The position numbers were made by a program, and so were the translations under genes. 64,000 nucleotides of DNA from Candidatus Uhrbacteria bacterium (lineage in GTDB: Bacteria > Patescibacteriota > Patescibacteriia > GWA2-47-26): NCBI GenBank assembly GCA_016187515.1, contig JACPJN010000006.1, positions 128,856-192,855 of the forward strand, in the 5' to 3' direction. Position 1 is the first letter of the stretch. Every line of letters begins with the position of its first letter. The notes under the pieces were generated by a model. It was not told where the DNA came from. It saw only the letters and a program-made list of their open reading frames with translations, and searched no databases. Positions 10,778-63,182 of the stretch are shown piece after piece.

Positions 10778-10799
10778 TATATGCAATTTTGAGTAGGAA

Positions 10800-22768: not shown

Positions 22769-23406
22769 TAACGCACCTCCGTTGCAAAGGAAGCAGCAAT
22801 GGTCTCTAGCTCTACAACTTTTGGATTGCCAGAGATTGAGTACACGCTGCCATTCGCCTCTGTGATGTATGTTTCGGACACATCATCAATAAGTTCACTG
22901 ATATAGCGCACTCTGGTAAACATCGTCCCACCTATAATTACCTGCGATTGAGATTCGATACCATCGATATATTTGATTTCTTCATTAATACTTCCTGCTC
23001 GCACTACCTCAATCGTGAGTGGGTACGGCGGATCAGAATGTAGCAATGGTGTGAACGGTTCCGGGTTTAACACCACGATGTGGACATTCGCATCACCTAT
23101 CGCGTCGAAAGGAAGCTCTGCATAGTACCACCCCTCCGGATACGCCAACTGCGCAATTCCCCAGGCCGGATTGCGGTACACTTGCCATCCTTCCGGAATC
23201 ACACTGCCGGAATCCGGCGCGCCAGCGTCCGCGCGTTCCTCTTTTACATCTTCAGCTTCCCTCTCGGCTTCTGCTCCAGCATCGGCCGATTCCGCCGCCG
23301 GGGTCTGGGTCAGCACTTTTTCCTTGCAGCCCAGCCCCAAAAGCGCAAACGCGACAAACACGGTCATTAACTTGTCAATGAACCCGCCTCTCCCACCGAC
23401 GTTCAT
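22768..23406 (-). CDS. lipoprotein, paralog pair with 29787..30425
   Basis: MNVGGRGGFIDKLMTVFVAFALLGLGC has a lipobox. The first roughly 110 aa are near-identical to the paralog, then the sequences diverge. It overlaps the downstream M23/Kelch gene by 1 nt (two-gene cassette). The start is chosen at M21 of ORF-track 22768..23466, so the true start is uncertain. Confidence 0.6.
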   Translation of the reverse strand: MNVGGRGGFIDKLMTVFVAFALLGLGCKEKVLTQTPAAESADAGAEAEREAEDVKEERADAGAPDSGSVIPEGWQVYRNPAWGIAQLAYPEGWYYAELPFDAIGDANVHIVVLNPEPFTPLLHSDPPYPLTIEVVRAGSINEEIKYIDGIESQSQVIIGGTMFTRVRYISELIDDVSETYITEANGSVYSISGNPKVVELETIAASFATEVR

Positions 23407-23513
23407 GCCTCCGTCCCGACCGTGGTCGGGACTCGGACTTTTCTCCTCGCTTTGAGTATAGTGCATATATGATAATTTGACAATTAGCTTCGCGATAATT
23501 GGTGATTCGATAA

Positions 23514-23921
23514 TTAGCCGCTTAGCGGCGATGATTTGCGATTGGTATTGATTTGTTTGCGTTGGTAATGCGCCTCAATATAGCGATTAAGTTTGGGCGC
23601 CAATCCCTGTATCATTCCGTTACACTTCTGAAAAAATGCTTCCGCTATTATACCGCGCTCTTTCATAAGCCCCAACCAATGCAGTGTTTCATAAAGAGAA
23701 CCCCGTGCATTATATAAAAATTTTATTTTGTCTAGATAGTGAAACCTCCCATGGGCTTCTGCAATATTCGCGCCTACCGAATCAATCGCGGTAATCCACT
23801 GATCCCCGATAATTTTTCTTGTATGCCATTCAAATGTTTTAAATGTGTTCCAACTTTCGCGCGATAATTCCCGTGCAATATTGTAGACCTCAATTTTATG
23901 CAAATTAATTTCCCCCTGCAT
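23514..23921 (-). CDS. four-helix-bundle protein (23S rRNA IVS / Avd-like family), second copy
   Basis: IAIDSVGANIAEAHGRFHYLDKIKFLYNARGSLYETLHWL matches the conserved core of the family (N..EG..R....D...FL..A.GS..E...). Confidence 0.65.
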   Translation of the reverse strand: MQGEINLHKIEVYNIARELSRESWNTFKTFEWHTRKIIGDQWITAIDSVGANIAEAHGRFHYLDKIKFLYNARGSLYETLHWLGLMKERGIIAEAFFQKCNGMIQGLAPKLNRYIEAHYQRKQINTNRKSSPLSG

Positions 23922-28251: not shown

Positions 28252-29787
28252 CTACGGCGGCGTATACCGTCCGCCGGTGTTGAGCGGTCCATCTTCATCA
28301 CTCCCTCCCCAGACCACCATTGCACTGCCAGTCCAAACCGCGGTGTGCAAGTAACGCGCCGCAGGCGCGCCAACAGTGGAGACCGGACTCCAGGAGTCGG
28401 TTTCCGGATCATACCGGCTGCCAGTGTTGAGTAGGCCATCTTCACCCCATCCATCCCGTCCTCCCCAGACCACCATTGCACTACCTGTCCAAACCGCGGT
28501 GTGCAAGTAACGCGCCGCAGGCGCGCCAACAGTGGAAGTCCGACTCCAGGAGTCGGTTTCCGAATCATACCGGCTGCCAGTGTTGAGACGGCTATCTTGA
28601 CCCGCTCCTCCCCAGACCACCATTGCACTACCGGTCCAAACCGCGGTGTGATAGTCACGCGCCGCAGGCGCGCCAAAGGTGGCAATCGTACACCAAAATT
28701 CGTGGCAATCCGAATCATCTTGATCAATGAATCCATCTACGTCGTTGTCTACGCCATCACAGCAACCACATTCAATGAGTACTCCTGCAACGCAAGCAAT
28801 TGCAGCAGACCCGCATGTTATGGTGAATCCTTCATCCACTCCGCCATCACAGTCGTTGTCCAGCTCGTCGCAGACTTCAACCGGAGCCGAACCGCAGACA
28901 CCGCAGGCATTGAGGAGTCCTTCATCTGTTGCGCCGTCGCAGTCGTTGTCAACCCCATCGCAGGTCTCGGGGCTTGACGGGAAAGGGACAGACGAGCAGG
29001 CGGTGCTCATGAAATCGGCGGTGCAAACATAGACGCCGGTGTTTTGGCAAGCGCCCACTCCTACTGTGCAAGGGGTAAGCAGGCCGGGGAATCCTTCGTC
29101 GGTCTGTCCATCGCAGTCATCGTCGGTGTAGTTGCAGACCTCGTCGGCATCGGGATTAATGACCGAGGCCGGCACACCTTCTGGCGTCTCCCCAGAGTCC
29201 AGGCAATCGCCTTCAGCAACCGTGTAGCCGTCGGAGTCGTTGTCAGCGAACGCGGGGCTCCAGGGCTGGGGAGGGCACGTGGCCCAGAGGGGGTTGGCGC
29301 CGCATCCCCCTGCGTAGTCCGGCGGATCGCCGTAGGGATTTACCCGCACTCCATCCGGATCGCGGACTTCGAAATGAAGGTGGGGGCCACGAGAAAACCC
29401 TGAAGTGTCTGACAGTGCAATCTGCTGACCGGGCGTAACGTCGCTATCCTCCTCCACCCGAATCGAGTCAGGAGCAAGGTGCGCGTAGATCGTAAGGTAG
29501 CCATTGGAATGCCTGATGCGAACATGGTTCCCAAAACCGCCCCGACGTCTAAATCCTGCAGGATGAGAATTATCTACCCTCGTGACGCTTCCTGCCGCGG
29601 CAGCAAACACAGGAGTGCCGCCCGCTGCTCGGTAATCGATCGCATTATGGCAAACGTTTGGGATCGGGTAGTTGGGACAGCAGAAATCACACGTAATAAC
29701 GCGTGTTTCTGCTAATGGCAGATACAGAAACTGTTCTGCTCTTGCCACACTTGCGGTAGCAAGTATTGCCATTATGTGCCTAATCAT
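28252..29787 (-). CDS. secreted M23 peptidase / Cys-rich / Kelch-like repeat protein (short paralog of 19880..22768)
   Basis: Signal peptide and M23 motifs (HNAIDYRAAGGTPVFAAAAG, GNHVRIRH, GPHLHFEV). CDGVDNDCDG-type motifs. Three TAVWTGSAMVVWGG repeats. C-terminus TGGRYTPP. The last roughly 45 coding nt plus about 90 nt downstream are near-identical to the 30597 paralog. Confidence 0.75.
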   Translation of the reverse strand: MIRHIMAILATASVARAEQFLYLPLAETRVITCDFCCPNYPIPNVCHNAIDYRAAGGTPVFAAAAGSVTRVDNSHPAGFRRRGGFGNHVRIRHSNGYLTIYAHLAPDSIRVEEDSDVTPGQQIALSDTSGFSRGPHLHFEVRDPDGVRVNPYGDPPDYAGGCGANPLWATCPPQPWSPAFADNDSDGYTVAEGDCLDSGETPEGVPASVINPDADEVCNYTDDDCDGQTDEGFPGLLTPCTVGVGACQNTGVYVCTADFMSTACSSVPFPSSPETCDGVDNDCDGATDEGLLNACGVCGSAPVEVCDELDNDCDGGVDEGFTITCGSAAIACVAGVLIECGCCDGVDNDVDGFIDQDDSDCHEFWCTIATFGAPAARDYHTAVWTGSAMVVWGGAGQDSRLNTGSRYDSETDSWSRTSTVGAPAARYLHTAVWTGSAMVVWGGRDGWGEDGLLNTGSRYDPETDSWSPVSTVGAPAARYLHTAVWTGSAMVVWGGSDEDGPLNTGGRYTPP

Positions 29788-30425
29788 TATGGCACCTCCG
29801 ATTGGAATGAGGATACGACAGTTTCAAGCGAGACCAATTCAGGGTCGCCAGTTATGGCATACACCCTCCCATTCATCTCCAATAGATACGATTCGAACTC
29901 TCTATCTACGAGCTCCTCGAGATATCGAATCTTTACAAACTGCCGCTCTCTAATTTCAACCGTAGTCTGTGACTCAAGATTCTGCGTAAGCAGAATCTCC
30001 TCTTCCAGCGTTCCACCTTCTCGAACATCAAGAGTGAGAGGGTACACTGGATCCGTATTGGAAAGCAGTGCAATCGGCTCAGAACTAAACACCACCACCA
30101 GAAGATTCGCATCACGAGTTTCTTCTGTCGACAATTCTTGTGAGTGCCACCCCGCCGGATACGCCAACTGCGCAATTCCCCAGGCCGGATTGCGGTACAC
30201 TTGCCATCCTTCCGGAATCACACTGCCGGAATCCGGCGCGCTGGCGTCCGCACGTTCCTCTTTCACATCTTCAGCTTCCTTCTCGGCTTCTGCTCCGGCA
30301 TCGGTCGATTCGTGAGCCGGGGTCTGGGTCAGCACTTTTTCCTTGCAGCCCAGCCCCAAAAGCGCAAACGCGACAAACACGGTCATTAACTTGTCAATGA
30401 ACCCGCCTCTCCCACCGACGTTCAT
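29787..30425 (-). CDS. lipoprotein, paralog of 22768..23406
   Basis: MNVGGRGGFIDKLMTVFVAFALLGLGCKEKVLTQTPA... is identical over the N-terminal region. It overlaps the downstream M23/Kelch gene start by 1 nt. Confidence 0.6.
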   Translation of the reverse strand: MNVGGRGGFIDKLMTVFVAFALLGLGCKEKVLTQTPAHESTDAGAEAEKEAEDVKEERADASAPDSGSVIPEGWQVYRNPAWGIAQLAYPAGWHSQELSTEETRDANLLVVVFSSEPIALLSNTDPVYPLTLDVREGGTLEEEILLTQNLESQTTVEIRERQFVKIRYLEELVDREFESYLLEMNGRVYAITGDPELVSLETVVSSFQSEVP

Positions 30426-30596
30426 GCCTCCGTCCCGACCGTGGTCGGGACTCGGATCAAAGTTAATTGCCTCTCTACGCATTATTCCACACTTTGACAA
30501 AACAAAAAAGGCCTGTGTGTTTTCAAGACACGCAGGCCAGAGCGTACCGCCGCGAAAAGGCGGGAATCGCCTCTTCGTGGCGGGTTTGCAAAAGAG

Positions 30597-34760: not shown

Positions 34761-35942
34761 CTAGAGCATACTCCACGCGCGAAAAGTGTCAAGCATTTTC
34801 TGCGCTGATTTTTGCCAAGAAAATTCCTGCGCGCGGACGTAGCCGGCTTCAATGTAATGCCGCCGCACCTCATTGTCTTCCAAAAGCACCCGCATCCCCG
34901 CGGCAATTTCATCCGTTTTCCACGGACTGACCAGCACCGCGCCGTTGCCGCAAATCTCGGGCACGGAGGAGGCGGAGGAGGCCACGACCGGCACGCCCGC
35001 GGCCATGGCTTCGAGCGGCGGAAAACCAAATCCTTCATAAAATGAAGGATAAACAAAAAGACGCGCTCCGGCGTACAGGTCTATTTTTTGTTCCTCGGTT
35101 GGATTCTCGATTAAACGGATGCGCTCGCGCAATTTGCTTTGGGCAATACGTTTTTTTAAGCGCTTTGTATAAGGAGTGGCCAAACCGGCGATCCACAATT
35201 GCTCCCGCGGTTTCAGTGCCTCGTATGCGGCAATCAACCCTTCAATATTTTTCCGCGGCTCCAGCGCGCCGAAATATAATATGAAGTCATCAGTCATCGG
35301 TTCACAGTTCACGGTTTTAGTTTTAATGTGAACTGTTGACTGTGAACTATTGACTCCACCTCCGGGATAGATCACGCTGATCTTCTTCGGCGGTATTCCA
35401 TACGTCTCCATCAAATCGTCCTTGGTATGCCTCGACACCGCGATAATATGATCGGCGCGTTTCAAAAGCGCGCGCGGACCGATGGCGCGATGCCAAAGCC
35501 GGCTTTTCAGCGAAAAATGTTCAGGGAAATGTATAAACGATAGGTCGTGAATAGTTAGAATGAGCTTGGTGCGCGATGGAAGCGCGATGAAATTCAGGTT
35601 GGGCATGAAAAAAATATCTAGACCCCCTCTAACTCCCCCTCGGAGAGGGGGAGAAACGATACGATTTCCTCCCCTGCCCGAGGGGAGGTTAGGAGGGGTG
35701 GGAGCACCAAACACCTTCATCCCTACATTCAACGCCTTATTCGGCCATCTTGTGTGATACACGCGCGCATTTGGATATTCGGAAAACTCCGGCACGGATA
35801 ATTTTCCTGCCGCGTTGTACCACACCACATACTCATTGACGCGATCCAACTCAAAAAGCGCGCGCAGAAGATGATAAGTATACTGCCCCACACCGCTTCT
35901 GGGCGTACTCTGCAGCGCGCGGCCGTCAATTGCTATTCTCAT
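34761..35942 (-). CDS. glycosyltransferase family 4 (GT-B, retaining)
   Basis: EGFGFPPLEAMAAGVPVVAS is the GT4 E-x7-E region. An in-frame GC-rich palindromic element at 35622-35706 encodes PPNLPSGRGGNRIVSPPLRGGVRGGLD. Confidence 0.85.
   Translation of the reverse strand: MRIAIDGRALQSTPRSGVGQYTYHLLRALFELDRVNEYVVWYNAAGKLSVPEFSEYPNARVYHTRWPNKALNVGMKVFGAPTPPNLPSGRGGNRIVSPPLRGGVRGGLDIFFMPNLNFIALPSRTKLILTIHDLSFIHFPEHFSLKSRLWHRAIGPRALLKRADHIIAVSRHTKDDLMETYGIPPKKISVIYPGGGVNSSQSTVHIKTKTVNCEPMTDDFILYFGALEPRKNIEGLIAAYEALKPREQLWIAGLATPYTKRLKKRIAQSKLRERIRLIENPTEEQKIDLYAGARLFVYPSFYEGFGFPPLEAMAAGVPVVASSASSVPEICGNGAVLVSPWKTDEIAAGMRVLLEDNEVRRHYIEAGYVRAQEFSWQKSAQKMLDTFRAWSML
35622..35706. repeat. GC-rich composite palindromic element, reference copy (gaccccctctaactccccctcggagagggggag...cctcccctgcccgaggggaggttaggaggggtgggag)
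   Basis: Two internal dyads: CCCCCTC..GAGGGGG and CCTCCCC-TGCCCGA-GGGGAGG. About 90 percent identical to 62860-62938 and to the reverse complement of 11795-11890. Confidence 0.75.
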
Positions 35943-37090: not shown

Positions 37091-37205
37091 TCCCCCCTCT
37101 TAAGTTAAGAGGGGGTAGGGGGAGTTATGCCTGTCCGTCTTAGACGAAAGCATACATCATGTTTCATAACCCCTCCCCGCCTCCCCTTATCTTAAGGGGA
37201 GGAGA
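37091..37205. repeat. pair of palindromes (ccccctcttaagttaagaggggg ... ccccttatcttaagggga) in the divergent spacer
   Basis: Read directly from the sequence. The first palindrome is identical to the one inside the carboxypeptidase gene at 12781-12803. Confidence 0.6.
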
Positions 37206-48045: not shown

Positions 48046-49921
48046 CCTCAATCAACACCGGAAGCACCATCGGCCTCCGGCGCGTCATGGTATACAAGAA
48101 CTGCCCGACTTCGTTGCGGATTTTGTTTTTGATGTGATCTTCAAAGGCCGGTGATTTGGGATCCGTGTCGCGCAAGATTTTCTTAATCAGCGATCGCGCG
48201 CGCTCAATAAGTTCTTTCGATTCGCGCAGATACACAAAGCCGCGCGAGATAATATCCGGACTGCCCAAAAGCGCGCCGGTGCGTTTGTCAATCGTGACAA
48301 TCACCACAAACATCCCGTCATCGGCTAACTGCTGCCGGTCGCGCAAGACCACCTCGGAGACATCGCCAACCCCGAGGCCATCAACCATGACATAGTCGGT
48401 CGGAACATACCGATCCGTCAGCCGGCCGCCCTGCTCATCAAACTCCATGACCTGGCCGTTATCCGCGACAAAGACGTTTTCCTCCTTGTATCCAATGCCG
48501 GTTGCCAGATCAGCGTGCGCTTGCAGCATAAAGCGATTCGCATGAATTGGAATCACATAGCGCGGACGAGTAAGCTGCATCATGAGTTTAAGCTCTTCTT
48601 GTTTGGCATGACCGCCGGCATGAATATCCATAAATTGATAGTGGTAAATTTTTGCGCCGTGGCGGATAAGCGCGTCCTTTAGACCTTGAATCGTGCGCTC
48701 ATTGCCCGGAATGACGGAAGAAGAGAAAATAATCGAGTCGCCCTTTTTAAGCGAGATTAAACGGTGCTCGTTGTTGGCGATGCGCATGAGCTGGGCATTC
48801 TTTTCGCCTTGCGCGCCCGTGCAAATAATGGTGACTTTGTTGTCAGGAAGACGATTAAAATCACGATCTTCGATAAATAAGCCGGTTTTGTATTTTAGGT
48901 AGCCGAGTCCATGAGCAATCTCAACGTTAGTGACCATGGAACGCCCTTGAATAAGCACTTTCCGCCCGTATTTTTCCGAAAGAGTTAAGAGATGCTGAAT
49001 ACGGGTTAGAAGCGATGCAAAGGTTCCAAAGATTAGACGACCTTGAGAATTCGCGGCAAAAATTTTCTCCAGTTCCTCAAATACTTGCTGTTCTGAAATT
49101 TGGTGTCCGGGAAAAGGCGCGTCGGTCGCATCGGAAAAAAGCGCCAGCACTCCGCGATCGCCAAACGAGCGCACGTGGTCAATATCCGCCGGCGGCTCGT
49201 TGACCGGGGTGTAATCAAATTTGAAATCGCCGGTGTGGAGCATAAGCCCATACGGGGTCTGAAGCGCCGCCCCGGTTGAGTCGGCAATATTGTGATTCAC
49301 ATGAAACGGCTCAAAGACAAAATGTCTCCCCAGCGCGATTTTCATCTTCGGCTTGATCAGCACGATATTCGGTTTTGGCGCTTTGGGAAATTCTTCTTGC
49401 CGCTTGCGGATAATCCCGGCCGAAAGCGCGGTAGTAAAGACCGGCGGATTGCCCAGTTTTCCAAGCAAATGCGGAATGCCGCCAATGTGATCATAATGGC
49501 CATGCGTTACAATAACGCCCCGGATATTGCGCTCTTTGCCGCGCAGACAAGCAATGTTGGGAATGATGTAATCAATGCCGTGCATGTCTTCTTCCGGAAA
49601 CTGGAGCCCCATGTCCACAATCACAATATCCTCTCCGCATTCATAAACCATGCAGTTGCGTCCCACCTCCTCCAGCCCGCCCAGCGCGTAGATTAGCAAT
49701 TTGGGGGGCCGGCCGCTGGCGGCCCGAGCAGGAGCGGAGGCGGCGATACTCCGGCTTTCCCCGGCCGTGCTCACGATCAGACGCGGCTCGCTTTTGCGCG
49801 GGGCAGATTTTCCATGCCTAAACGGGCCGCGCCGACGGCGCGGTCTAGGATTGCGAGTGCCGCTGCCGTGTGCTGATCCTGGAGCTGAAATAGTTTTCGC
49901 TGTGAATTCCGCTGATTCCAT
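48041..49921 (-). CDS. rnj: ribonuclease J (metallo-beta-lactamase / beta-CASP)
   Basis: HxHxDH motif VTHGHYDHIGG. beta-CASP motifs and the C-terminal domain are present. The Arg-rich N-terminal extension of about 70 aa may not be translated. The conserved core begins near KLLIYALGGLEEVGRNCM. Confidence 0.85.
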   Translation of the reverse strand: MESAEFTAKTISAPGSAHGSGTRNPRPRRRRGPFRHGKSAPRKSEPRLIVSTAGESRSIAASAPARAASGRPPKLLIYALGGLEEVGRNCMVYECGEDIVIVDMGLQFPEEDMHGIDYIIPNIACLRGKERNIRGVIVTHGHYDHIGGIPHLLGKLGNPPVFTTALSAGIIRKRQEEFPKAPKPNIVLIKPKMKIALGRHFVFEPFHVNHNIADSTGAALQTPYGLMLHTGDFKFDYTPVNEPPADIDHVRSFGDRGVLALFSDATDAPFPGHQISEQQVFEELEKIFAANSQGRLIFGTFASLLTRIQHLLTLSEKYGRKVLIQGRSMVTNVEIAHGLGYLKYKTGLFIEDRDFNRLPDNKVTIICTGAQGEKNAQLMRIANNEHRLISLKKGDSIIFSSSVIPGNERTIQGLKDALIRHGAKIYHYQFMDIHAGGHAKQEELKLMMQLTRPRYVIPIHANRFMLQAHADLATGIGYKEENVFVADNGQVMEFDEQGGRLTDRYVPTDYVMVDGLGVGDVSEVVLRDRQQLADDGMFVVIVTIDKRTGALLGSPDIISRGFVYLRESKELIERARSLIKKILRDTDPKSPAFEDHIKNKIRNEVGQFLYTMTRRRPMVLPVLIEV

Positions 49922-49974
49922 AGAGTTGAATGTAAAATTTAAAATGTAAAATGTAAAATTGTTTATTAAGAATT

Positions 49975-50024
49975 TGGGCGAGGAGGGAGTCGAACCCTCA
50001 TGCCTTGCGGCATACGCTCCTGAA
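49975..50024 (-). pseudogene. tRNA 3'-half fragment (anticodon loop TTCAGGA through acceptor 3' strand CCTCGCCC)
   Basis: Minus strand reads TTCAGGAGCGTATGCCGCAAGGCATGAGGGTTCGACTCCCTCCTCGCCCA. There is no 5' half adjacent. Its acceptor strand is perfectly complementary to the 5' fragment at 50230-50285. Confidence 0.55.
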
Positions 50025-50037
50025 GCCCGCCTAAATT

Positions 50038-50121
50038 TGCCCAGAGGGGGACTCGAACCCCCATGGCCTTGCGACCGCTAGCTCCTGAAGCTAGTGCGTC
50101 TGCCAATTCCGCCACCTGGGC
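50038..50121 (-). tRNA. tRNA-Leu (anticodon CAG), class II
   Basis: Minus-strand sequence GCCCAGGTGGCGGAATTGGCAGACGCACTAGCTTCAGGAGCTAGCGGTCGCAAGGCCATGGGGGTTCGAGTCCCCCTCTGGGCA. It abuts 13-bp inverted repeats cccgcctaaattt (50025-50037) and aaatttaggcggg (50122-50134) on both sides. Confidence 0.85.
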
Positions 50122-50134
50122 AAATTTAGGCGGG

Positions 50135-50203
50135 TGAACTAGTGCGCCTGCCCAGCACCGAGCTTCGCTCTGGTGCTGGGTCTGCCAATTCCGCCACCGC
50201 GGC
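50135..50203 (-). pseudogene. tRNA 5'-half fragment (acceptor, D-arm, then a 32-nt hairpin insert, truncated in the anticodon loop at TTCA)
   Basis: Minus strand reads GCCGCGGTGGCGGAATTGGCAGAC then CCAGCACCAGAGCGAAGCTCGGTGCTGGGCAG then GCGCACTAGTTCA. Confidence 0.5.
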
Positions 50204-50229
50204 ATTGGTGTGGGGGTGAATCTGCCAAC

Positions 50230-50285
50230 CTGTCCCGCCGCCCTCCGACCGTAGTCGGAGTGGTGCGGGATTCCACCACTCGCCC
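50230..50285 (-). pseudogene. tRNA 5'-half fragment (GGGCGAG acceptor + D-arm + 7-bp hairpin), complementary to 3' fragment 49975-50024
   Basis: Minus strand reads GGGCGAGTGGTGGAATCCCGCACCACTCCGACTACGGTCGGAG.... It starts 5 nt after the stop of the solute-binding-protein gene. Confidence 0.5.
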
Positions 50286-50289
50286 ATTC

Positions 50290-52119
50290 CTAGCGCCACC
50301 CGAGTCGCGACCGCATATACCATTGGTGAACCCCGACAAAACGATCCGCGGGCAGCGCCACGTTTTTTACGTCAACCCCGCGCACTTTTTTTGAAATTAC
50401 ATACACATAAGGGCTGCGGTAAAGAATCACCCCGGGCGCTTCCTCATAAAACAACTTTTGAAACTCGAGGTAGCGGTCCAATCTTTCCTCCGGATCGGTC
50501 GCCAGGCGCGCTTGTTCAAGGGCAATATCAATTCCCCGCACCCGTAAGCTCGACAGATTAAGACCGGGATGATCAATTTGAGTGGAATGCCAGAAAGAAT
50601 ATGGATCGCCATCGCGCCCCTCGACAAACGAAAAGAGCAGAACTTCATAAGCGCGAGTGCGCAGCACGCCTTGTTCGAACGCTCCCTTGTGCACCGCCTC
50701 CAGCGTTACTTCCACCCCGAGCTTTTTCCAAGCGGACCGGAGCGCGTCGGCAACCGTAAGCTGAATCGGCTCATCTTGGACCGTCAGCCGCACCGCCAAG
50801 GGCTTCTGATCTTTTTTCCATACTGCTCCTTCCTTCTTCCACCCCGCCTCTTTAAGCAGGCGCGCGGCCTCCGCTAAATCATAGGCCGGGGGCAAAAGCG
50901 TGCGCGCGTATCCGATTTGACCCTCGACAAACGGAGCGGTCTCGGGCTGCGCGTCCGGAACCAGAGCGGCAATCGCGCCGCGATCCAGCGCGCGCGATAA
51001 GGCCTGGCGTACGGCTTTTTCTCGCAGCGCCGGAGCGCGCCGATCTTGAAAGAAAAGTCCGACGAATCTGGGGATATCCGCTTTGATGACCGCTACTCCG
51101 GTGGATGGAATACGGCCGCGCATCCGCTCCGGAACAAAACTTACTCCTAAAACGGTGTGTTCCCGAACCGCGTTTACCGCGCCCTCAAAATCCGGGAAAA
51201 AATATAATACCAACTCCTCAATATAGGGCGCTCCTTTATAATATCGCGTAAACCGCGCCAGTTGGTAAGACCGAATACTGCCATCACGACTTTTAAGGAA
51301 AGACGAAAACTGGAAAGGGCCGGAGCCGACGGGTTTTAAGTTCCATACCGCGAGCGGCGCTTCTTTCGGGTCCGCGTTTTCCCAAATATGTTTGGGTATG
51401 ATACCGACCGTAAAAAGATTGGCAAAACTATTGGTAAAAGTCGCGGTCTTAACTAAAATCACGTTTGGCTCCGGACTGGATATTTCAATCCCTTCGAATG
51501 AACGCCACAGCGGCGAACGCCAGGCCGGATTTTGTATGCTTTTAACGGTAAAGATTATATCGTCAACCTCGAGGCGCTCACCATCGTGAAAAAACAGATT
51601 ATCCCGCAAAATAAATTTCAGGGTTCTGCCTCCGTCTTCAGCCGTAAAGCTCTCCGCCAGATCTCCCGTAAGCTCTCCTTTACTATTATACATGAGCAGC
51701 CCGGAATAGATCAAGCGGCTCAAGTCCCGATCCACATCGCTCCCCGCCAATATCGGATTAACAAAACGCGGACTGCCAACCAGGGCCTCGCGGTATACTC
51801 CCCCGGGCTTGGGGACGCGCTCCAGATGCGGGGTAATCAGACGGCTAAGTCCAGCCGCGACGATTATGATAAAAAACGCGGCCGCCCCCTGCAAGACCCA
51901 GCGCTCTTTGGCGGAAAGCAGGGTCGGCAGGTGCCGCAGCTGGGTAAATTTAGGCAGACGCAAACGCGCTCCGGAGAGCACCAGCTTCTTATCCAGATCT
52001 TCGGATTTTGGAGGATGACGGAAGAATTTCAACACAGCATTCAACGGGATAGCCACAGGATAGAAGACAGGACAGCCACAAGATCGCGGATCCGTGATCC
52101 GTGGGCCATCCGTAAACAA
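50290..52119 (-). CDS. ABC transporter substrate-binding protein, family 5 (OppA/DppA-like), membrane-anchored
   Basis: N-terminal TM anchor, then SBP_bac_5-like sequence (GGVYREALVGSPRFVNPILAGSDVDRDLSRLIYSGLL...). There are no adjacent permease or ATPase genes. Confidence 0.75.
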   Translation of the reverse strand: MFTDGPRITDPRSCGCPVFYPVAIPLNAVLKFFRHPPKSEDLDKKLVLSGARLRLPKFTQLRHLPTLLSAKERWVLQGAAAFFIIIVAAGLSRLITPHLERVPKPGGVYREALVGSPRFVNPILAGSDVDRDLSRLIYSGLLMYNSKGELTGDLAESFTAEDGGRTLKFILRDNLFFHDGERLEVDDIIFTVKSIQNPAWRSPLWRSFEGIEISSPEPNVILVKTATFTNSFANLFTVGIIPKHIWENADPKEAPLAVWNLKPVGSGPFQFSSFLKSRDGSIRSYQLARFTRYYKGAPYIEELVLYFFPDFEGAVNAVREHTVLGVSFVPERMRGRIPSTGVAVIKADIPRFVGLFFQDRRAPALREKAVRQALSRALDRGAIAALVPDAQPETAPFVEGQIGYARTLLPPAYDLAEAARLLKEAGWKKEGAVWKKDQKPLAVRLTVQDEPIQLTVADALRSAWKKLGVEVTLEAVHKGAFEQGVLRTRAYEVLLFSFVEGRDGDPYSFWHSTQIDHPGLNLSSLRVRGIDIALEQARLATDPEERLDRYLEFQKLFYEEAPGVILYRSPYVYVISKKVRGVDVKNVALPADRFVGVHQWYMRSRLGWR

Positions 52120-54841: not shown

Positions 54842-55207
54842 ATGCCGTTTAGATTTGAGGATTTGCGAGTATACCAGCGTACTCTCGAACTTGTTGACCA
54901 TATCTATGATGTTGTGGATAAATTCCCTACTCACGAACTATACACCCTCTCGTCGCAGTTACGGCGTGCTGTAATCTCAATTCTTTTAAACATAGCGGAG
55001 GGTACAGGACGAACCAACAAGGAATTCGCGCATTTTGTAGACATGTCAAGAACTTCTGCATACGAATGCATCGCATGTTTGGCGATCGCGCTACGTCGAA
55101 AATACATCACGCAACAATCCTATGAAACACTCTATGCTGAAATAAACGAGATTGTGAGAATGCTTAATGCCCTCAAAAATAGTATCAACAACAATACGGT
55201 GAACTGA
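54842..55207 (+). CDS. four-helix-bundle protein (23S rRNA IVS / Avd-like family), third copy
   Basis: [53 protein letters not shown] matches the family consensus closely. Confidence 0.8.
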
Positions 55208-55230: not shown

Positions 55231-58155
55231 ATGAAAAACACCATCCAAATTCGCGGCGCGCGCGTCAATAATTTGAAAGACATCACGGTTGAGATTCCCA
55301 AAAATAAATTAGTGGTCATCACCGGACTTTCCGGTTCGGGAAAATCATCACTGGCTTTTGACACCCTGTTTGCCGAAGGCCAGCGCCGGTATGTGGAGTC
55401 GCTGGGCAGTTTTATCCGGCAATTTTTGGAACTCCAAAACAAACCGGACGTGGATGAAATCCGCGGCTTGTCGCCCACGATCGCGATCGACCAAAAAGGA
55501 CTTTCGGAAAATCCCCGTTCCACCGTCGGCACCATTACGGAAATCGCCGACTATCTGCGGCTGCTTTTTTCACGAATCGGAAAAATGGAATGCCTGGCCT
55601 GCCAAGCGCCCCTGCGTCGGCTTGCTCCGGAAGAAATCGTACGCGAATTAACTGCCGAAATATCCAACCACTCCCTTATCCTGCTCGCCCCGTTGGTCTC
55701 AAAAAATAAAACCGAGGAAACCGCCGATGATATTATTGAACGGCTGGAGCGCGCCGGTTTTTCCGAAGTGCGCTTAAACGGAGCACGGATGCCGCTAAAC
55801 ACGCTTAAAGAATTGGGCCTGCCTCAAATTCCTTTCGCGCTCGACGTCGTCATCGGAACGCTTGGCCCAAAAGAATTAGCAGAAGATCCGGGCTACGTCC
55901 GCCTGCAAATTTTAACCGCCCTGGAACTCGGCGACGGCGCGGTGGCGGCCGAAATAATCGTCCCCGCACCCCCTCCCTTGGTGGGAGGGGCGAGGGGAGG
56001 GGGAAAGGATGAGGGGATCTTATTTTTCTCCCGCGAACTGACTTGTCCGTCTTGCGGAAAAACCTATCCGCCTTACGAGCCGCGCAATTTTTCCTTCAAC
56101 AGTCCCCACGGGGCGTGCGCGGGCTGCACCGGACTGGGCGTCAAGGCGACCGTCATCCCCGAGCTGGTCTTGCCTAATCCGCGCCTGACTTTGCGCGAAG
56201 GAGCGATTAAACCCTGGTCCCGGATCGGAGCAAATCAGTCCTCCCGCCTGGAATTGCTTAACGCGGTCGCGGCAAAACATAAATTCTCGCTGGACACTCC
56301 CGTCGGTGAACTGACCGCGCGCTCCCGCGAGATCGTGCTTTTCGGCGCCAAAGATGAGCTTTACGAACTGAAAGGCGCCGCGATGAAATTTCAGGGAGTC
56401 ATCCCGGAACTGCAGTCGCGCTACTCCGATACGGACTCCGACTACATCCGCAAAGAAATCGAGACCTATATGCGCCAGGAGCTTTGCCTGGAGTGCCAGG
56501 GCGGCCGCCTTAAACCCGAAACCCTAGCCGTTACGCTCGCCGGGAAAAATATCGCGGAGCTTGGCGCCCTGTCCATTGATGACGCCATCGAATTTTTTGA
56601 AAAAATTACTAAATCCACCGGCTCGCTCGCGCCGTCCGAACTTGCCGTCGCTACCCCGATTGTCAGAGAAATTCTGACCCGCCTTAAGCACCTGCAGCAC
56701 GCCGGGCTGGGCTACTTGAGTTTGGATCGCTCGGCGCCCAGCATTTCCGGCGGAGAAGGACAGCGCATTCGCCTCGCCGTCCAGCTGGGGACCACCCTTT
56801 CCGGGGTGATCTATGTTCTGGACGAACCCACGGTCGGACTTCATGAACGCGACACGCAAATGCTGTTGAACCTGTTGCGCGAACTTATCGCTAATGAAAA
56901 TACGGTTGTGGTGGTTGAACATGACGCTCGACTCATGCGCGAGGCGGATTTCATCATTGATATGGGACCCGGGGCCGGGCAGTGCGGCGGACAAGTGGTC
57001 ACCCGCGGAACCGCGGGAGCCATTATGAAACACGGAAAGTCGCTGACCGGCGCGTACCTGGCCGGAAGGAAGCGCATTGCCCTACCCTCACCCTCCCCTC
57101 TCCCCAAGGGAGAGGGTGGCCGCAGGCCGGGTGAGGGACGCCGCGGCAATGGCAAGGCCCTCTTCATCAAAGGCGCGAGCGCGTTCAATCTCAAAAACGT
57201 AGATGTTAAAATCCCGCTGGGAAAATTTGTCTGCGTTACCGGGGTCTCCGGGTCCGGGAAATCCACGCTCATCCTGGAAATTCTGGGCAAAGCGCTGGCG
57301 CGCAAACTTTACAACGCGCATGATCTGCCCGCGGCCCATCAAGAGATTACCGGCCTCCAGCATCTTGACAAAGTCATTACCGTGGACCAAACCCCGATTG
57401 GACGAACCCCGCGATCCAACCCGGCCACCTATACCGGAATCTTTACGCTCGTGCGCGACCTTTACACTGAAATTCCGGAAAGCAAACTCAAGGGCTTTGA
57501 CGCCGGAACCTTTAGCTTCAACGTACGGGGCGGACGCTGTGAAAGCTGTACTGGCGAGGGTTATGTAAAAGTCGCCATGCAATTTATGGCCGACACCTAT
57601 TTACTCTGTCCCGAGTGCCATGGCACGCGCTACCACGCCCACGCGCTGGAAGTCCACTATAAAAATAAAAATATCGCCGAGGTCTTAACCCTGTCGGCCG
57701 CGGAGGCCAAAATATTTTTCAAGGACGTGCCGCTCCTGGCCGAAAAACTTCAGGTTCTGGAAGACGTCGGTCTGGGCTATATCAAACTTGGCCAGGGCGC
57801 GCCGACTTTATCCGGCGGAGAAGCCCAGCGGGTTAAACTGGCCACTGAACTGTCCCGCCGGGCCACCGGCAAAACCCTGTATATCCTGGATGAACCCACT
57901 ACCGGCTTGCACTTTGATGATATTCAGCATCTTTTGCTGGTCCTGGATCGGCTGGTAGAAAAAGGCAACGCGGTTCTCGTGATTGAACATAATCTGGAGG
58001 TCATCAAATGCGCGGACTGGGTGATTGACATGGGTCCGGAGGGCGGAAAGGGCGGCGGGTATTTGGTGGCGGAAGGCACGCCGAAAGATATTTGCAAAGT
58101 AAAAAAATCGTATACGGGACAGTATTTGAAACGAGTTCTCTCCCCCTTAAGATAA
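55231..58155 (+). CDS. uvrA: excinuclease ABC subunit A
   Basis: N-terminal Walker [28 protein letters not shown], duplicated ABC ATPase modules, and zinc-finger Cys clusters. Two in-frame GC-rich palindromic inserts (55963-56018 and 57083-57140) encode Pro/Gly-rich loops. A further palindrome overlaps the stop (58141-58197). Confidence 0.95.
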
Positions 58156-58197
58156 GGGGGAGTGGGAGGGGGTTATGAAGGGTTGGGGTGAGGGATC
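58141..58197. repeat. palindrome cccccttaagataagggggag + GGGAGGGGG tract at the uvrA stop
   Basis: Read directly from the sequence. Family member. Confidence 0.6.
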
Positions 58198-59389: not shown

Positions 59390-59430
59390 TTTTAAAAAAC
59401 CCGTTTGGATCATTACTGATCCAAACGGGG
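59390..59430 (-). terminator. Rho-independent terminator for 59455..61095
   Basis: On the minus strand, ccccgtttggatcagtaatgatccaaacggg is followed by ttttttaaaa. Confidence 0.65.
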
Positions 59431-59454
59431 TGAAGGTACGCTCTGGTTTTCCTC

Positions 59455-61095
59455 CTACACCGGCGCTACGGCTGCGGTGCTAGCGGCCCTCCTGCCGCGC
59501 CGGCCTCGCGCGGGAGGCGTCTTGGGCTCCGGCGGCGGAGCCGGGAACACGGTGCGCAAGGCCTGGACAACCGCGCCAAACTGCGCGCGCCGCGGCGTGT
59601 CCTGCATCGTGCCGTCCACCCGCTTGCGCTGACGCGCGCAGGGGTGATCGTAAAAGTACGTCAGGCCGTCCAAGTTGGCCGCGATCCGCTCGGTAACCGC
59701 GGCAAAGCCATTGACCCGTCCGCGCAGGCCGGAAAGTTCGGCCTCGGCGCGCAAGGCATGCTGGCGCTTGTCTTCCGCCGCGGCACGCGCTTCTGCCGCT
59801 TCCTGCGTGAGGCGCGTCATCTCCCCCTGCGCCAACGCCAGCTCCTGGCTGGCATGGTCACGTTCGTTGACAACCTGACGCGCAAGCACCGCGATCTCGC
59901 TCGCCTCCGCCTCATGCGCGCCCAGCTCGCCCAAGGCCGCCTGGACCTGGACCAGGAGGTCCGCGCGCGCGACTTCGGCCTGCTCCGCGCGCCGCTGCTG
60001 CGCCTGGAGTTCGTCCATGCGCGTCTGGGCCGCCTGCGCCAGCCCCAGGTCCTCGGGGGCGCGCAGCGCGCCGCGCGTACGGCGGATCTGGACCACGAGA
60101 TCACCACCCGCTTTTTTCAAATCCGCGATCTTGTCGGCAACGACCTTAACAACATCCAATTCCGAAGGCGCTTCACGGTAATCCGCTCCCACTGCCGCGT
60201 ACAATCCGCGCCGAACGCCCTCGGCTGCGTCATCAATTCCCTCAAACTCACTGGCATTGAGGGACTGGCGAGCGCGCCCAACACGCTCAAGCAAGGGTTT
60301 GTACATCTGGAGCAATGACGAATGCGCATCCTGCGCAAGGCGCAGCGACGCGCGCGTTTCCTGCAACGCGGCATTGGCTCGGTGCCGCTGACGCCACAAA
60401 AACCACAAAACCGTACCAAACACCATCAGCACTACGCTCAAAAACACCACTTGGCCGCTTGTGATTCCGTTTGGGGCAGCGCGCAGCGCCGCAAGCTCAC
60501 GACCCTGCTGCTGGAGCGCGGCTTGGAGCGCCGCGACTTCCTCGTCGCGCCCGGGGGCGCTCTGCGCATTGGCCGTTCCACCGGCCGGAAGTGCGCGCAC
60601 CTGCCTTTCCAATCCGGCCACATACGCCTCGCACACCTGCCGGCCGCCCTGGCAAGGCGGGAGCGACTGAAACACCGTGAGGCGCGCGCCGTGGCGCCGG
60701 TTCAGTCCGAACTCCGTACGCCGGCAGTCCAGCCGTTCATCCAGCGCCCGCACCTGCGCGACCGTGCGCAGCTTGTAGTCCACCGGATCCACCCACAGCT
60801 TGGAACCATTGGAAAGCGTGCAGATCATCCAGACCGCGCCGCTTACCAGATTCGGGCACTCACCCGTCCGCGTATTGGTCATGAGCGCCACCCTTTCCGG
60901 GGTGGCCGTGAGACCGCGCTTTTCAATCCCGGCCTGGATCGTGGAACCATCCGCGCTCGGACAGTTCTCGCCGCGCAGACCGCAGTCCGCCGAAAGCAAC
61001 TCTCCATCCGGCGGCAGCCCCGGCTTGGCCTGCGCCGTGACGCTCGCGAACATCACCGCGAAAAACGCGAACAACATGTTGGTGATCCGGTCCAT
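59455..61095 (-). CDS. hypothetical single-pass membrane protein with extracellular Cys-containing domain and cytoplasmic coiled-coil (high-GC gene)
   Basis: Signal peptide MDRITNMLFAFFAVMFASVTAQA. TM helix VVFLSVVLMVFGTVLWFLW. Ala/Glu/Arg/Leu-rich helical C-terminal half. Confidence 0.5.
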   Translation of the reverse strand: MDRITNMLFAFFAVMFASVTAQAKPGLPPDGELLSADCGLRGENCPSADGSTIQAGIEKRGLTATPERVALMTNTRTGECPNLVSGAVWMICTLSNGSKLWVDPVDYKLRTVAQVRALDERLDCRRTEFGLNRRHGARLTVFQSLPPCQGGRQVCEAYVAGLERQVRALPAGGTANAQSAPGRDEEVAALQAALQQQGRELAALRAAPNGITSGQVVFLSVVLMVFGTVLWFLWRQRHRANAALQETRASLRLAQDAHSSLLQMYKPLLERVGRARQSLNASEFEGIDDAAEGVRRGLYAAVGADYREAPSELDVVKVVADKIADLKKAGGDLVVQIRRTRGALRAPEDLGLAQAAQTRMDELQAQQRRAEQAEVARADLLVQVQAALGELGAHEAEASEIAVLARQVVNERDHASQELALAQGEMTRLTQEAAEARAAAEDKRQHALRAEAELSGLRGRVNGFAAVTERIAANLDGLTYFYDHPCARQRKRVDGTMQDTPRRAQFGAVVQALRTVFPAPPPEPKTPPARGRRGRRAASTAAVAPV

Positions 61096-62202: not shown

Positions 62203-63182
62203 ACGAATTCTCGGCGAGTGCCGCTTAAATCCTTAAACGCAATTTTCCGCGCATGCAACATGAGCCGGCTTGATTTACCTGTCTCGCTTGATTTACTTGA
62301 TTTACTGCGATACAGCGTATCGCCGACAATCGGATGCCCAATGGCTTTTAAGTGTACGCGAATCTGATGCGTCCGGCCAGTGCGGGTCCGGATCGCGAGA
62401 AATGTCACCCTCCCCTTCATCCCCTCCCATCGAGGGAGGGGGATCGTTTCGTACTCGGTCACGGCCTGTCTTCCCTTCCCCCCTTTTGGCCGCGCCACCA
62501 TCCGCGCGCCTTTGCGCGCCACGACAAATTCAATCACGCCCTGCGGCGGAATGACCGCGCCATTTACCGCCGCGACATATTCTTTTTCAACCTCATGCAT
62601 TTTAAATTGCTTTTTTAAATGATCAAACATATCCTGGGTACGGGCGATAACCATGACTCCGGAAACGTCGGCGTCAAGCCGATGCGCAATGCCCGGACGG
62701 ATTGGATCATCGCCGACTTTTCCAAGCTCGGGATACCGTGCCAGCAATCCATTAACCAGGGTATCCGGGGCTTTATGGCCTGCGCCTTGATGAACGACCA
62801 GGCCAGCGGGCTTGTTCACGACAATAAAATCCGGTTCTTCGTGGAGTACCCATGCCAGACCCCCTCTCACTCCCCCTCCGAGAGGGGGAGAAACAATTTT
62901 TCCTCCCCTGCCCGAGGGGAGGTAAGGAGGGGTGGGAGTACAATTAACGATTTGTACCTCCGGATTTGGCACCACCCGCAAATCCTCCGGTGGCTCGATT
63001 ACTGCCTCCACCTCATCACCCATGCGTAAAAAATGGTGCGGCGTGATGCGTTTGCTGTTTACCGTAACTTGTCCGTCTTTGACCATCCTTTGCAAATGCG
63101 CGCGCGAAAACTCCGGCAAATATTCTTTCAGAAACTTGTCGAGTCGTTGACCTTGATGTTCAATCGTAATTAAGAAATCCAT
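62172..63182 (-). CDS. RluA-family 23S rRNA pseudouridine synthase (RluD-like) with N-terminal S4 domain
   Basis: S4 region RLDKFLKEYLP. Catalytic motif HRLDADVSGVMVIARTQ. Two in-frame repeat-derived inserts: the GC-rich palindromic element at 62860-62938 and the TTGATTTACTTG repeat at 62265-62310 (encoding SKSSKSSETGKSS). A further GC-rich tract lies at 62404-62475. Confidence 0.85.
   Translation of the reverse strand: MDFLITIEHQGQRLDKFLKEYLPEFSRAHLQRMVKDGQVTVNSKRITPHHFLRMGDEVEAVIEPPEDLRVVPNPEVQIVNCTPTPPYLPSGRGGKIVSPPLGGGVRGGLAWVLHEEPDFIVVNKPAGLVVHQGAGHKAPDTLVNGLLARYPELGKVGDDPIRPGIAHRLDADVSGVMVIARTQDMFDHLKKQFKMHEVEKEYVAAVNGAVIPPQGVIEFVVARKGARMVARPKGGKGRQAVTEYETIPLPRWEGMKGRVTFLAIRTRTGRTHQIRVHLKAIGHPIVGDTLYRSKSSKSSETGKSSRLMLHARKIAFKDLSGTRREFVCPEPEEFLL
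62860..62938. repeat. GC-rich composite palindromic element, near-identical to 35622-35706
   Basis: gaccccctctcactccccctccgagagggggagaaacaatttttcctcccctgcccgaggggaggtaaggaggggtgggag. Confidence 0.75.

Follow-up and report, generated by a model that had tools for sequence, protein, structure and literature searches.

In a Candidatus Uhrbacteria bacterium (contig JACPJN010000006.1), the intergenic region upstream of the RNase J gene contains an intact tRNA-Leu(CAG) gene lodged within fragments of other tRNA-Leu(CAG) genes. The region lies in a 64-kb stretch of the contig, hereafter the window. An older outer gene, A, was once a single intact tRNA-Leu(CAG); it is now interrupted by a different and complete tRNA-Leu(CAG) allele, C, enclosed by complementary arms, and by the 5′ piece of a third allele, B. 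On balance, we favour reading the locus as a palimpsest of serial tRNA gene replacements by a small, protein-less, repeat-bounded cassette. The core of this interpretation, i.e., that the outer pieces are relics and that the inner gene was inserted among them, is highly probable, while the proposal that the inserted unit is a laterally mobile cassette is made more tentatively. In what follows, W denotes the window locus, and L with a number denotes a compared locus.

Anatomy of the window locus

Every feature of the tRNA array is carried by the minus strand (Table 1), within a spacer of 370 nucleotides (nt) that extends from the stop codon (50292-50290) of an SBP_bac_5 solute-binding-protein (SBP) gene, open reading frame (ORF) 52119-50290, to the start codon of RNase J at 49921. 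ARAGORN called five tRNAs in the window, among them tRNA-Leu(CAG) at 50037-50122(-), and the Rfam tRNA model RF00005 matched positions 50038-50121(-) with 52.3 bits (E = 9e-10). Both results agree with the intact tRNA-Leu(CAG) that the initial annotation had placed at 50038-50121, and they assign it to the minus strand. Judged from its sequence, this inner gene, C, is presumably functional. A repeat finder located the two arms of an inverted repeat at 50026-50044 and 50116-50134, each 19 nt long and 100% complementary to the other, in which 13 nt of flanking sequence (CCCGCCTAAATTT / AAATTTAGGCGGG) are joined to 6 nt of the acceptor stem. The 13-bp flanking repeats extending the acceptor stem had already been noticed, and the helix also takes in the discriminator A73. 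We estimate that a perfect 19-mer inverted repeat would be expected by chance about 1e-6 times in 650 nt, and the exact 13-mer arm occurs once within the 64 kb. The inner unit measures 110 nt, or 114 nt counting the TTCA that precedes it, and contains no genuine ORF; the sole ORF of the array region (49966-50205) overlaps the tRNA and was judged spurious.

Outside this unit lie the pieces of A and B. The 3′ relic of A reads C + TTCAGGA ... CTCGCCCA and was detected by nhmmer with a tRNA-Leu(CAG) profile at E = 3.5e-7; the profile was built from 31 tRNA-Leu(CAG) genes and run against their own masked flanks. A 3′ half starting at the anticodon loop TTCAGGA had been described before, and the preceding C31 belongs to it as well. 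Similarly, the GGGCGAG of the outermost 5′ half is, as first reported, the exact complement of the CTCGCCC of the 3′ relic, and this half additionally holds a 43-nt hairpin of its own. The core of this hairpin is a CCGAC-N4-GTCGG palindrome (inverted repeat I2), and it is absent from the related loci L211, L209 and L213, where AAT(T)GGCA(G/A)A is continuous. Fragment B was recovered with the same profile at E = 1.6e-3; the 5′ half with a hairpin insert of the initial annotation therefore stands as a fragment, although its hairpin is 30 nt long rather than 32. The D-arm of B is identical to that of the inner tRNA in 19 of 19 positions, its second part, direct repeat D3, matches the inner tRNA at 93% identity, and its 3′ half is missing from the locus. 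The TTCA and leader that precede B are in register with the left end of the inner unit (direct repeat D1).

The three genes are distinct alleles. Their acceptor 5′ strands are strongly different (GCCCAGG in C, GCCGCGG in B and GGGCGAG in A), and in repeat D2, which covers the T-arm and 3′ end, the 3′ relic of A matches the inner tRNA at 75% identity, the acceptor strands being unrelated.

A mosaic of this kind could be produced by a metagenome assembly that joined strain alleles through shared k-mers. Indeed, B and the inner tRNA share 19-23 nt, and two Logan contigs (L002 and L003) break exactly in that repeat. However, the 370-nt intergenic region recurs without a single difference in Logan contig L001, which was assembled independently and is reported for 4 samples, so the arrangement is not an assembly artefact. 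Against a chimera, which we regard as very improbable, also stand the unique non-tRNA sequences (leaders and hairpins) at the junctions and the analogous nested loci found in many independent metagenome-assembled genomes and in one single-cell genome (L009).

Table 1. Positions of the tRNA pieces, repeats and inserts of the window locus, and of the second hairpin family (window coordinates)
Feature	Position	Strand	Composition
5′ relic of A, part 1	50270-50285	-	GGGCGAG TG GTGG AAT: acceptor 5′ strand, D-stem 5′ strand, start of D-loop
GC-rich hairpin insertion in D-loop of A, 43 nt	50227-50269	-	CCCGCACCACTCCGAC TACG GTCGGAGGGCGGCGGG ACAGGTT
5′ relic of A, part 2	50221-50226	-	GGCAGA (end of D-loop); the ancestral next 8 nt, CACGTACG, are gone
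Left end of earlier cassette	50204-50220	-	TTCA + 13-nt leader CCCCCACACCAAT, 5′ of fragment B; right-arm partner missing
5′ relic of B, part 1	50181-50203	-	GCCGCGG TG GCG G AATTGGCAGA; whole piece GCCGCGGTGGCGGAATTGGCAGA
Hairpin in B at position 21/22, 30 nt	50151-50180	-	CCCAGCACCAGAGC GAA GCTCGGTGCTGGG
5′ relic of B, part 2	50139-50150	-	CAGG + CGC A CTAG (CAGGCGCACTAG): D-stem 3′ strand, nt 26, 4 of 5 nt of anticodon-stem 5′ strand
Left end of inner cassette	50122-50138	-	TTCA (50138-50135) + 13-nt leader arm CCCGCCTAAATTT (50134-50122)
Intact tRNA-Leu(CAG), C	50038-50121	-	Acceptor GCCCAGG/UCUGGGC, discriminator A, CCA not encoded
Right (trailer) arm	50026-50038	-	AAATTTAGGCGGG; shares discriminator A73; with it, the acceptor stem becomes a helix of about 20 bp
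3′ relic of A	49975-50025	-	C31, anticodon loop TTCAGGA, GCGTA (stem 3′ strand), variable arm, T-arm, CTCGCCC, A73
Second hairpin family	775-831, 9696-9718, 11826-11878, 12781-12803, 19536-19558, 24523-24543		
Second hairpin family, continued	35633-35688, 37093-37202, 55970-55990, 58140-58162, 62421-62441, 62860-62922		

The uninterrupted outer gene in a close relative

Comparison of the locus with relatives, an approach proposed in the initial annotation, revealed the outer gene in uninterrupted form. In L211 (GCA_016203545.1, Candidatus Uhrbacteria), whose RNase J is 84% identical and whose gene order matches that of the window, ARAGORN calls one tRNA-Leu(CAG) between the SBP and RNase J genes. 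This gene reads GGGCGAGTGGTGGAAT-GGCAGA-CACGTACG-CTTCAGGAGCGTA...CTCGCCCA, the portion after CACGTACG being CTTCAGGAGCGTATGCCGCAAGGCATGAGGGTCCGACTCCCTCCTCGCCCA, and the sequence that spans the uninterrupted A allele is GGCAGACACGTACGCTTCAGG. The pieces of A in the window are collinear with it: the 5′ 16 nt (16/16 against L211:2367-2382) and GGCAGA are identical, and the 3′ relic with its trailer is 98.2% identical over 111 nt. Where L211 has the 8 nt CACGTACG, which make up the 3′ strand of the D-stem, nt 26 and four of the five nt in the 5′ strand of the anticodon stem, W has about 195 nt, which contain the second 5′ fragment and the repeat-flanked tRNA. ARAGORN found no tRNA in the joined A relics of the window and called one once the 8 nt of L211 were restored. 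The L211 tRNA is otherwise intact, with an unusual T-loop (TCCGACT, C at position 55).

Because L211 keeps an intact allele and the joined pieces are not a tRNA without the 8 nt, we regard the outer fragments as relics of a disrupted resident gene and not as halves of a split tRNA. The initial annotation had proposed that a repeat-flanked tRNA entered an older tRNA-Leu gene, and the older gene does lie intact at the same position in L211. The proposed entry point in the anticodon loop does not hold for A, which is broken at the D-loop/D-stem boundary (21/22) with the loss of 8 nt; an anticodon boundary applies to the innermost unit, in B. Its alternative of a split or intron-containing tRNA is not supported, given the failure of the joined A relics as a tRNA, the unpartnered B fragment, and the lack of a bulge-helix-bulge motif or group I intron.

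The similarity to L211 is unevenly distributed. The A 3′ half, trailer and RNase J promoter region (L211:2396-2506 vs window 50026-49916) are 98% identical, while DNA identity outside this block is 79% in RNase J and 66% at the SBP 3′ end. This difference between the block and its flanks (66-79%) suggests a recent lateral exchange of the intergenic block.

Resident and relic alleles in other close relatives

Among the other close relatives, the site holds a single simple tRNA in L213 (RNase J 79% identical) and L218 (73%). In L209/L210 (87%), an intact A-type gene is followed by hairpins in the T-loop of a relic and by the relic 3′ end, after which comes the trailer AAATTTAGGCGG; this trailer equals the right arm of W. 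In L212 (83%), an A-type gene is followed by CTTGTACGGGG and a hairpin, after which comes the 3′ portion of a relic, homologous to the inner tRNA of W; L214 (78%) has an intact C-type gene with an A-type 3′ end as the relic. Since C is intact and A a relic in L214, and the reverse in L212, resident and relic alleles trade places between relatives. L004 and L005, the nearest relatives that the genome and metagenome collections offered, have no tRNA at the site, and the informative relatives came from protein look-ups; L004 (RNase J 66% identical) has a hairpin, TTCACCCCC...GGGGGGAA, in its RNase J leader. In L209, a reverse-transcriptase gene (RVT_1, 4357-5301 (-)) directly 3′ of RNase J has no counterpart in the window.

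Recurrence of nested loci in the Patescibacteria

All compared loci were obtained via RNase J. The location of tRNA-Leu(CAG) directly upstream of RNase J is a conserved synteny in the phylum (31 of the loci first collected), and relics occur at about one third of approximately 38 Patescibacteria loci with this arrangement, always in nested order. With nhmmer, tRNA-Leu fragments were found beside the intact gene in W, L012, L043, L089, L098, L125, L101, L009, L006 and L212; others were seen by eye in L087, L014, L209 and L214. All 13 fragments with E below 1 lie on the tRNA's own strand, the 5′ pieces upstream and the 3′ pieces downstream. By our estimate, a nested rather than tandem order would have a probability of about 1e-4 if both sides were equally likely.

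Repeat-flanked inner tRNAs are present at six loci, and five of them are inserted at the D-loop/D-stem boundary. In L012, L043, L089, L098 and L125, complementary arms bracket the inner gene, and the relic pieces lie outside the arms; L103 has 15-bp arms and no recognisable relic. The left junction falls just past the last D-loop nucleotide (GGCAGA, GGTATA or GACAGA) in gene A of W and in L012, L089, L098 and L125. Other positions are the anticodon stem/loop boundary (gene B of W, and L043), D-loop position 17 (gene A of W, and L098), and the T-loop after TTCG (L098, L209, L006 and L009).

The leader and trailer of W form a duplex of -31.9 kcal/mol (z = -4.6 vs shuffles). Strong leader-trailer complementarity, with z from -2.4 to -9.4, was seen only in W, L043, L098, L103, L125 and L012, five of which are nested loci, and was not found in the other tRNAs tested, which included the other four of the window. 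We therefore rejected the idea that such pairing is a general trait of tRNAs in these bacteria, it being confined almost wholly to nested loci.

In L098 (1181-1607), the outer tRNA-Leu(CAG) is perfectly preserved and contains three repeat-bounded inserts, two of them with a cargo of about 85-100 nt that has no Rfam match. Removing the D-loop insert, the arm-tRNA-arm unit and the T-loop insert in silico restores a tRNA-Leu(CAG) call by ARAGORN. The inner tRNA of L098 is also called by ARAGORN, yet the Rfam tRNA model does not list it at E <= 0.05. In L101 (2790-2925), the 5′ half of tRNA-Leu(CAG) is duplicated in tandem over 52 nt; the acceptor of the upstream copy (GCGGACG) matches the 3′ end, and the copy within the ARAGORN call begins ATGGACG.

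The complete outer exons of L098, left when the three inserts are taken out, bear on the possibility that these loci work at the RNA level, i.e., as nested genes whose inner tRNA is freed by RNase P/RNase Z (or whose hairpins are excised as in rRNA) while the outer pieces, parts of one common precursor, are joined or held together by the 13-bp helix to yield a second functional tRNA, split or spliced. In silico, the whole 331 nt of W are predicted to form helices nested in one another and to close the outer acceptor stem (minimum free energy (MFE) -178 kcal/mol, z = -7.25). The complementarity of leader and trailer is reminiscent of the paired flanks generally known from split halves in Nanoarchaeum, and five of the seven mismatches in the arms of other loci would still permit G·U pairing on the tRNA strand. 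Nevertheless, a 5:2 ratio of wobble to non-wobble changes is not significant, so it gives no sign of RNA-level selection on the arms. The outer gene of W is 8 nt short of L211 and its joined relics are not recognised as a tRNA, B lacks its 3′ half, and the relics of relatives are truncated at variable points. Additionally, no bulge-helix-bulge, group I intron or other Rfam family was found, and no EndA or RtcB-type protein was detected in the window by a Pfam scan of its 57 largest ORFs. This explanation is contradicted at W but not at loci of the L098 type, and we consider it quite improbable.

The 3′-end fragments located downstream of the intact gene in L009, L006, L209 and L214 could instead be scars of integrase-mediated integration, in which islands or prophages that target tRNA-Leu brought replacement segments and were later deleted, leaving att fragments. 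Elements classically integrate at tRNA genes, where they cross over in the anticodon loop or the T-loop and usually leave displaced fragments of the 3′ end. However, only 13-25 nt separate the fragments from the intact gene, and the 64 kb yielded neither an island nor an integrase domain. The upstream 5′ fragments are not a product of the standard 3′-replacement scheme, and the relic and the intact gene at W are different alleles. Moreover, the unit comprises a complete tRNA with both acceptor strands, and the D-loop/D-stem junction is an untypical sublocation for an integrase. Integration scars are thus an improbable source of these loci.

Ends and arms of the inserted unit

A TTCA or TTTA directly 5′ of the leader arm was found in seven cases (twice in W, and in L012, L043, L089, L098 and a hairpin of L007). 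In gene A of W, TTCA follows GGCAGA at the point where the ancestral gene of L211 has CACG. Based on this difference and on its recurrence before other leaders, we interpret TTCA as a conserved left end of the insert rather than a duplicated target. The initial annotation had compared the TTCA on both sides of the inner tRNA with a target-site duplication; this comparison is not supported, as the left TTCA abuts B, while the right one, in TTCAGGA, belongs to gene A, and TTCA also stands before leaders at which a duplication would be impossible. The leader opens with TTCA(C/T)CCC in L012, L043 and L089, and a complementary TGAA stands at the right end in L043 and L089.

Leader sequences are also shared between distant lineages, the arms forming families common to distant hosts, among which the L004 hairpin is counted. 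The motif TTCACCCGCCTAA(A/G)TTT of the inner leader of W recurs in L007, and the leader of unit C (TTCACCCGCCTAAATTT) is identical in 16 of 17 positions to a cargo-less hairpin of L007, whose RNase J is 56% identical. The leader and 5′ tRNA part of unit B match the inner unit of L098 (RNase J 50% identical) in 35 of 40 positions. The L007 hairpin, 35 nt long and of the W arm family, interrupts the T-loop of a tRNA-Ile(GAT)-like gene with encoded CCA (~3650-3770 (-)); this gene is probably a pseudogene because ARAGORN calls it only without the hairpin and the remaining T-loop, TGAAAAT, is non-canonical. In the window, a terminator-like hairpin with a T-run (59400-59434 (-), TTCAC-CCCGTTTGGATCA-GTAA-TGATCCAAACGGG) after ORF 59455-61095 opens with TTCACCCC, a motif also present in the cassette leaders, which need not imply a relationship.

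Several observations weigh against the favoured reading. The TTCA copies flanking the inner unit come from different genes, leaving no clear target-site duplication, and the cassette arms are single-copy in the window. The Pfam scan of the 57 largest ORFs of the 64 kb returned no transposase (including Y1_Tnp), integrase or reverse transcriptase, and neither a free or circular form nor a second genomic context was seen among loci that were all fetched through RNase J. The right arms look like degenerate D-loop sequence (GAAATTGGTA in L012 is an example), and recombination at the site itself could therefore have generated the arms, which then need not have travelled with the tRNA. Likewise, the relic hairpins hold inverted copies of nearby tRNA sequence (CACCACTC vs GAGTGGTG), which a template switch would explain as well as the insertion of a mobile palindrome. 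The perfect preservation of the outer gene in L098 is unexpected for an old relic. Finally, the order of steps and the CTTCAGGAGC-mediated deletion proposed below are a reconstruction and not an observation.

Part of this evidence is shared with a serious alternative for the origin of the arms and hairpins, namely, local rearrangement without a mobile unit, in which natural transformation with diverged Patescibacteria DNA is followed by illegitimate or homology-facilitated recombination and template switching at a hairpin-prone tRNA gene, yielding patchwork copies, deletions and, as hairpins and repeat arms, inverted duplications. The window encodes DprA, the 98% identity of the A-plus-trailer block between W and L211 (RNase J 79%) points to a recent allele exchange, and three of the five window tRNAs (Leu, Met and Val) have upstream 5′ pseudo-copies, while the inverted tRNA copies in the hairpin arms and the D-loop-like right arms fit the same origin. 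Local rearrangement nevertheless leaves unexplained the conserved TTCA(C/T)CCC left end, the leader arms common to lineages whose RNase J is only 50-56% identical, the reuse of junction 21/22 in five lineages, and the nested order in 13 of 13 cases. Weighing both sides, we hold it to be unlikely, though clearly less so than integration scars.

Other candidates were tried and rejected. A blastn search of the 331-nt array against INPHARED and PLSDB, for a phage or plasmid origin, matched the tRNA body only. The junction motif TTGGCAGATTCAYYCC gave 45 matches in IMG/VR; no match had a tRNA around it, and chance suffices to explain them all. The likeness of GCCTAAA...TTTAGGC to an integron attC site was not upheld by the arms of L012, L043 and L098, which lack core sites, and a promoter inside the arms was dismissed since TTCACC and TAAATT are just 4 nt apart.

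A proposed history of the locus

Under the favoured reading of serial replacement by a cassette, the ancestral state would have been a single tRNA-Leu(CAG), A, between the SBP and RNase J genes. A first unit, in which TTCA and a leader of about 13 nt precede a complete tRNA-Leu(CAG), B, and a complementary trailer follows it, would have entered A at 21/22, and a second unit, carrying C, would then have entered B at 30/31, the anticodon stem/loop boundary. A deletion between two 10-nt CTTCAGGAGC repeats, located in the anticodon regions of B and A, may have removed the B 3′ half, the B right arm and the CACGTACG of A; a single event would therefore account for both missing pieces. Small GC-rich palindromes would subsequently have built up in the dead D-loops. 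The best explanation is that only the inner tRNA of W is functional and that the fragments are pseudogene relics. The host genome probably has one gene per isoacceptor, and insertion would be selectively tolerated because each unit supplies a working copy of the tRNA that it disrupts.

The inner unit is predicted in silico to fold as a 20-bp stem capped by the tRNA body (MFE -66.4 kcal/mol, z = -6.75). In this model, the 13 bp of leader-trailer helix lengthen the acceptor stem of 7 bp and most likely keep the folding of the inner tRNA undisturbed by the relic D-arm, with which this tRNA shares 19 identical nt. The helix may also be a processing stem that is opened or cut before the action of RNase P and 3′ trimming. 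CCA must be added post-transcriptionally, as it is not encoded.

A broader proposal, which we consider possible but doubtful, is that the leader-tRNA-trailer units form an undescribed class of tiny protein-less mobile elements in the Patescibacteria, in effect 'selfish' tRNA genes. Such units might home into a gene of the same isoacceptor, mainly at the D-loop/D-stem boundary, replace its function and spread between distant lineages, and the empty hairpins might be their cargo-less derivatives.

Comparison with known systems

The ingredients of the locus are already known: insertion into tRNA genes, fragments left as relics, and small elements with inverted repeats at their ends. Their combination in a protein-less unit of about 110 nt that carries a full replacement for the interrupted gene looks undescribed. 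A full-text literature search returned only group I introns in Patescibacteria tRNAs, and nothing on tRNA genes nested in relic tRNA genes.

As in integrative elements at tRNA genes, the target is a tRNA, a working gene is restored, old fragments are kept alongside, and serial events leave several of them. In contrast to those elements, the W unit is about 110-130 nt long, encodes no protein, is bounded by inverted repeats, and brings a whole tRNA instead of a 3′ segment; W also has 5′ relics upstream together with 3′ relics downstream, a preference for the D-loop/D-stem, and no integrase nearby. The unit resembles miniature inverted-repeat transposable elements in its short length, lack of an ORF, terminal inverted repeats of 13-19 bp and conserved ends (TTCACCC...), and in its variable interior, which can be a 3-nt loop (L007), a tRNA (W, L043 and L098) or a cargo of 85-100 nt (L098). 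It differs from them in having no demonstrable target-site duplication, a single copy in 64 kb and no candidate transposase, and in a cargo that, at W, is a functional tRNA of the target's isoacceptor. Palindromic elements derived from IS200/IS605 (PATE/REP-like) insert 3′ of a fixed tetranucleotide, have hairpin ends and go with a Y1 transposase in the genome; at the nested loci, TTCA or TTTA stands on the left in 7 cases, though outside the target where this can be checked (L211 reads CACG), and no Y1_Tnp domain turned up in the window.

The split and multi-intron tRNAs of archaea (Nanoarchaeum, and intron transposition in Thermoproteales) share with these loci the interruptions at the D-loop, anticodon and T-loop, the complementary sequences that flank the break, and the reuse of the same positions across lineages. 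W, however, is bacterial, lacks a bulge-helix-bulge, has incomplete outer 'exons', and its insert is a full tRNA of the same specificity. Between its junctions, a 13-bp helix runs on into the acceptor stem without a break, leaving 4 nt unpaired on the 5′ side and 8 on the 3′ side. The stem-loops known as 23S rRNA intervening sequences (IVS) likewise have inverted repeats and optional cargo, occur in loops of structural-RNA genes and are sporadic among relatives; an IVS resides in a functional gene and is cut out by RNase III, whereas at W the interrupted genes are dead and the cargo is functional.

In the Patescibacteria, group I introns have been reported at position 35/36 in the tRNAs for Asn and Asp, with no mention of nested tRNAs (PMC13011429). 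They have in common with W the phylum, an interruption in or near the anticodon loop, and being missed by standard annotation. The W insert is nonetheless about 110 nt long, compared with about 200 nt or more for the introns, its 5′ junction nucleotide is A and not U, and the tRNA is Leu. A group I intron or another known RNA was discarded as an explanation after Rfam, at E <= 10 over 49000-51500, returned tRNA only; at E <= 0.05, eight nested loci likewise gave only tRNAs.

Other tRNA relics and repeats in the window

Flanking genes of the window include those for RNase J, TrpRS/TyrRS, SecG, a DsbA-like protein, a T4SS-pilin-domain protein, UvrA, DprA and ParAB. Relatives of the RNase J belong to the Patescibacteria, the best with a name being Candidatus Uhrbacteria at 84% identity. 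The promoter scan returned a sole promoter-like site, at 49957-49929, in the AT-rich stretch before RNase J.

Two further tRNA genes of the window have relics upstream. Directly upstream of tRNA-Met (10779-10704), a pseudo-copy at 10790-10854 (-) is 96% identical over its first 25 nt, including a TGCAT leader; a 7-bp hairpin (UCCCGAC-CAUA-GUCGGGA) of the same 20-nt length has taken the place of its anticodon arm, the T-arm has degenerated, and the 3′ acceptor strand is missing. Between tRNA-Leu(GAG) and tRNA-Val (16960-17057 (-)), a 5′ relic of tRNA-Val (GCGCGCGTAGC ... CTCAGTGGTAGAGCAC) lies directly upstream of the intact gene and is broken by two nested GC-rich hairpins with CCGAC/GTCGG stems. 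With Leu, Met and Val each having one, upstream relics accompany three of the five window tRNAs.

CCGAC-N(3-24)-GTCGG palindromes number 13 in the window against 1.6 expected, a count that none of 100 shuffles reached (sites include 10812, 16984-17043, 23416, 30435 and 50245). Each of the three tRNA relics (Leu, Met and Val) contains one, usually as CCGAC-YRTR-GTCGG. A second dispersed hairpin family (CTCCCCCTT...AAGGGGGAG / CCTCCCC...GGGGAGG; Table 1), often paired, resembles repetitive extragenic palindromic (REP) sequences, and one member lies about 55 nt upstream of tRNA-Leu(CAA).

A near-identical repeat of about 130 nt (23300-23440 and 30320-30450), which includes the hairpin GTCCCGACCGTGGTCGGGAC, covers the 5′ ends of the paralogous ORFs 22768-23466 (-) and 29787-30500 (-). 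These ORFs have no Pfam match, and each is located upstream of a large M23-peptidase/Kelch-repeat protein. The window also encodes three '23S rRNA intervening sequence protein' paralogues (PF05635, bAvd-like; 14609-15028 (-), 23514-23921 (-) and 54842-55207 (+)) and a PDDEXK_3 nuclease (1599-2069 (+)). Small genes of the 23S IVS-protein and PDDEXK_3 types are often tied to intervening sequences and insertion hot spots.

Implications for tRNA genes in the Patescibacteria

Few parts of a bacterial genome are normally as static as its tRNA genes, and in the reduced genomes of the Patescibacteria the isoacceptor genes are probably single-copy and essential. Repeated overwriting by complete genes within the gene body is an unexpected route of tRNA turnover and lateral exchange, and it accounts for pseudo-tRNA fragments and for "missing" or mis-called tRNAs in annotations of such genomes. 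The 20-bp helix, which buries the 5′ and 3′ ends, raises a testable question of how the tRNA is processed. If the units are mobile, they would be the smallest known elements with their own complementing cargo, and would offer a testable system for tolerated insertions in essential RNA genes. If they do form a class of their own, they would drive rapid allele turnover at tRNA loci.

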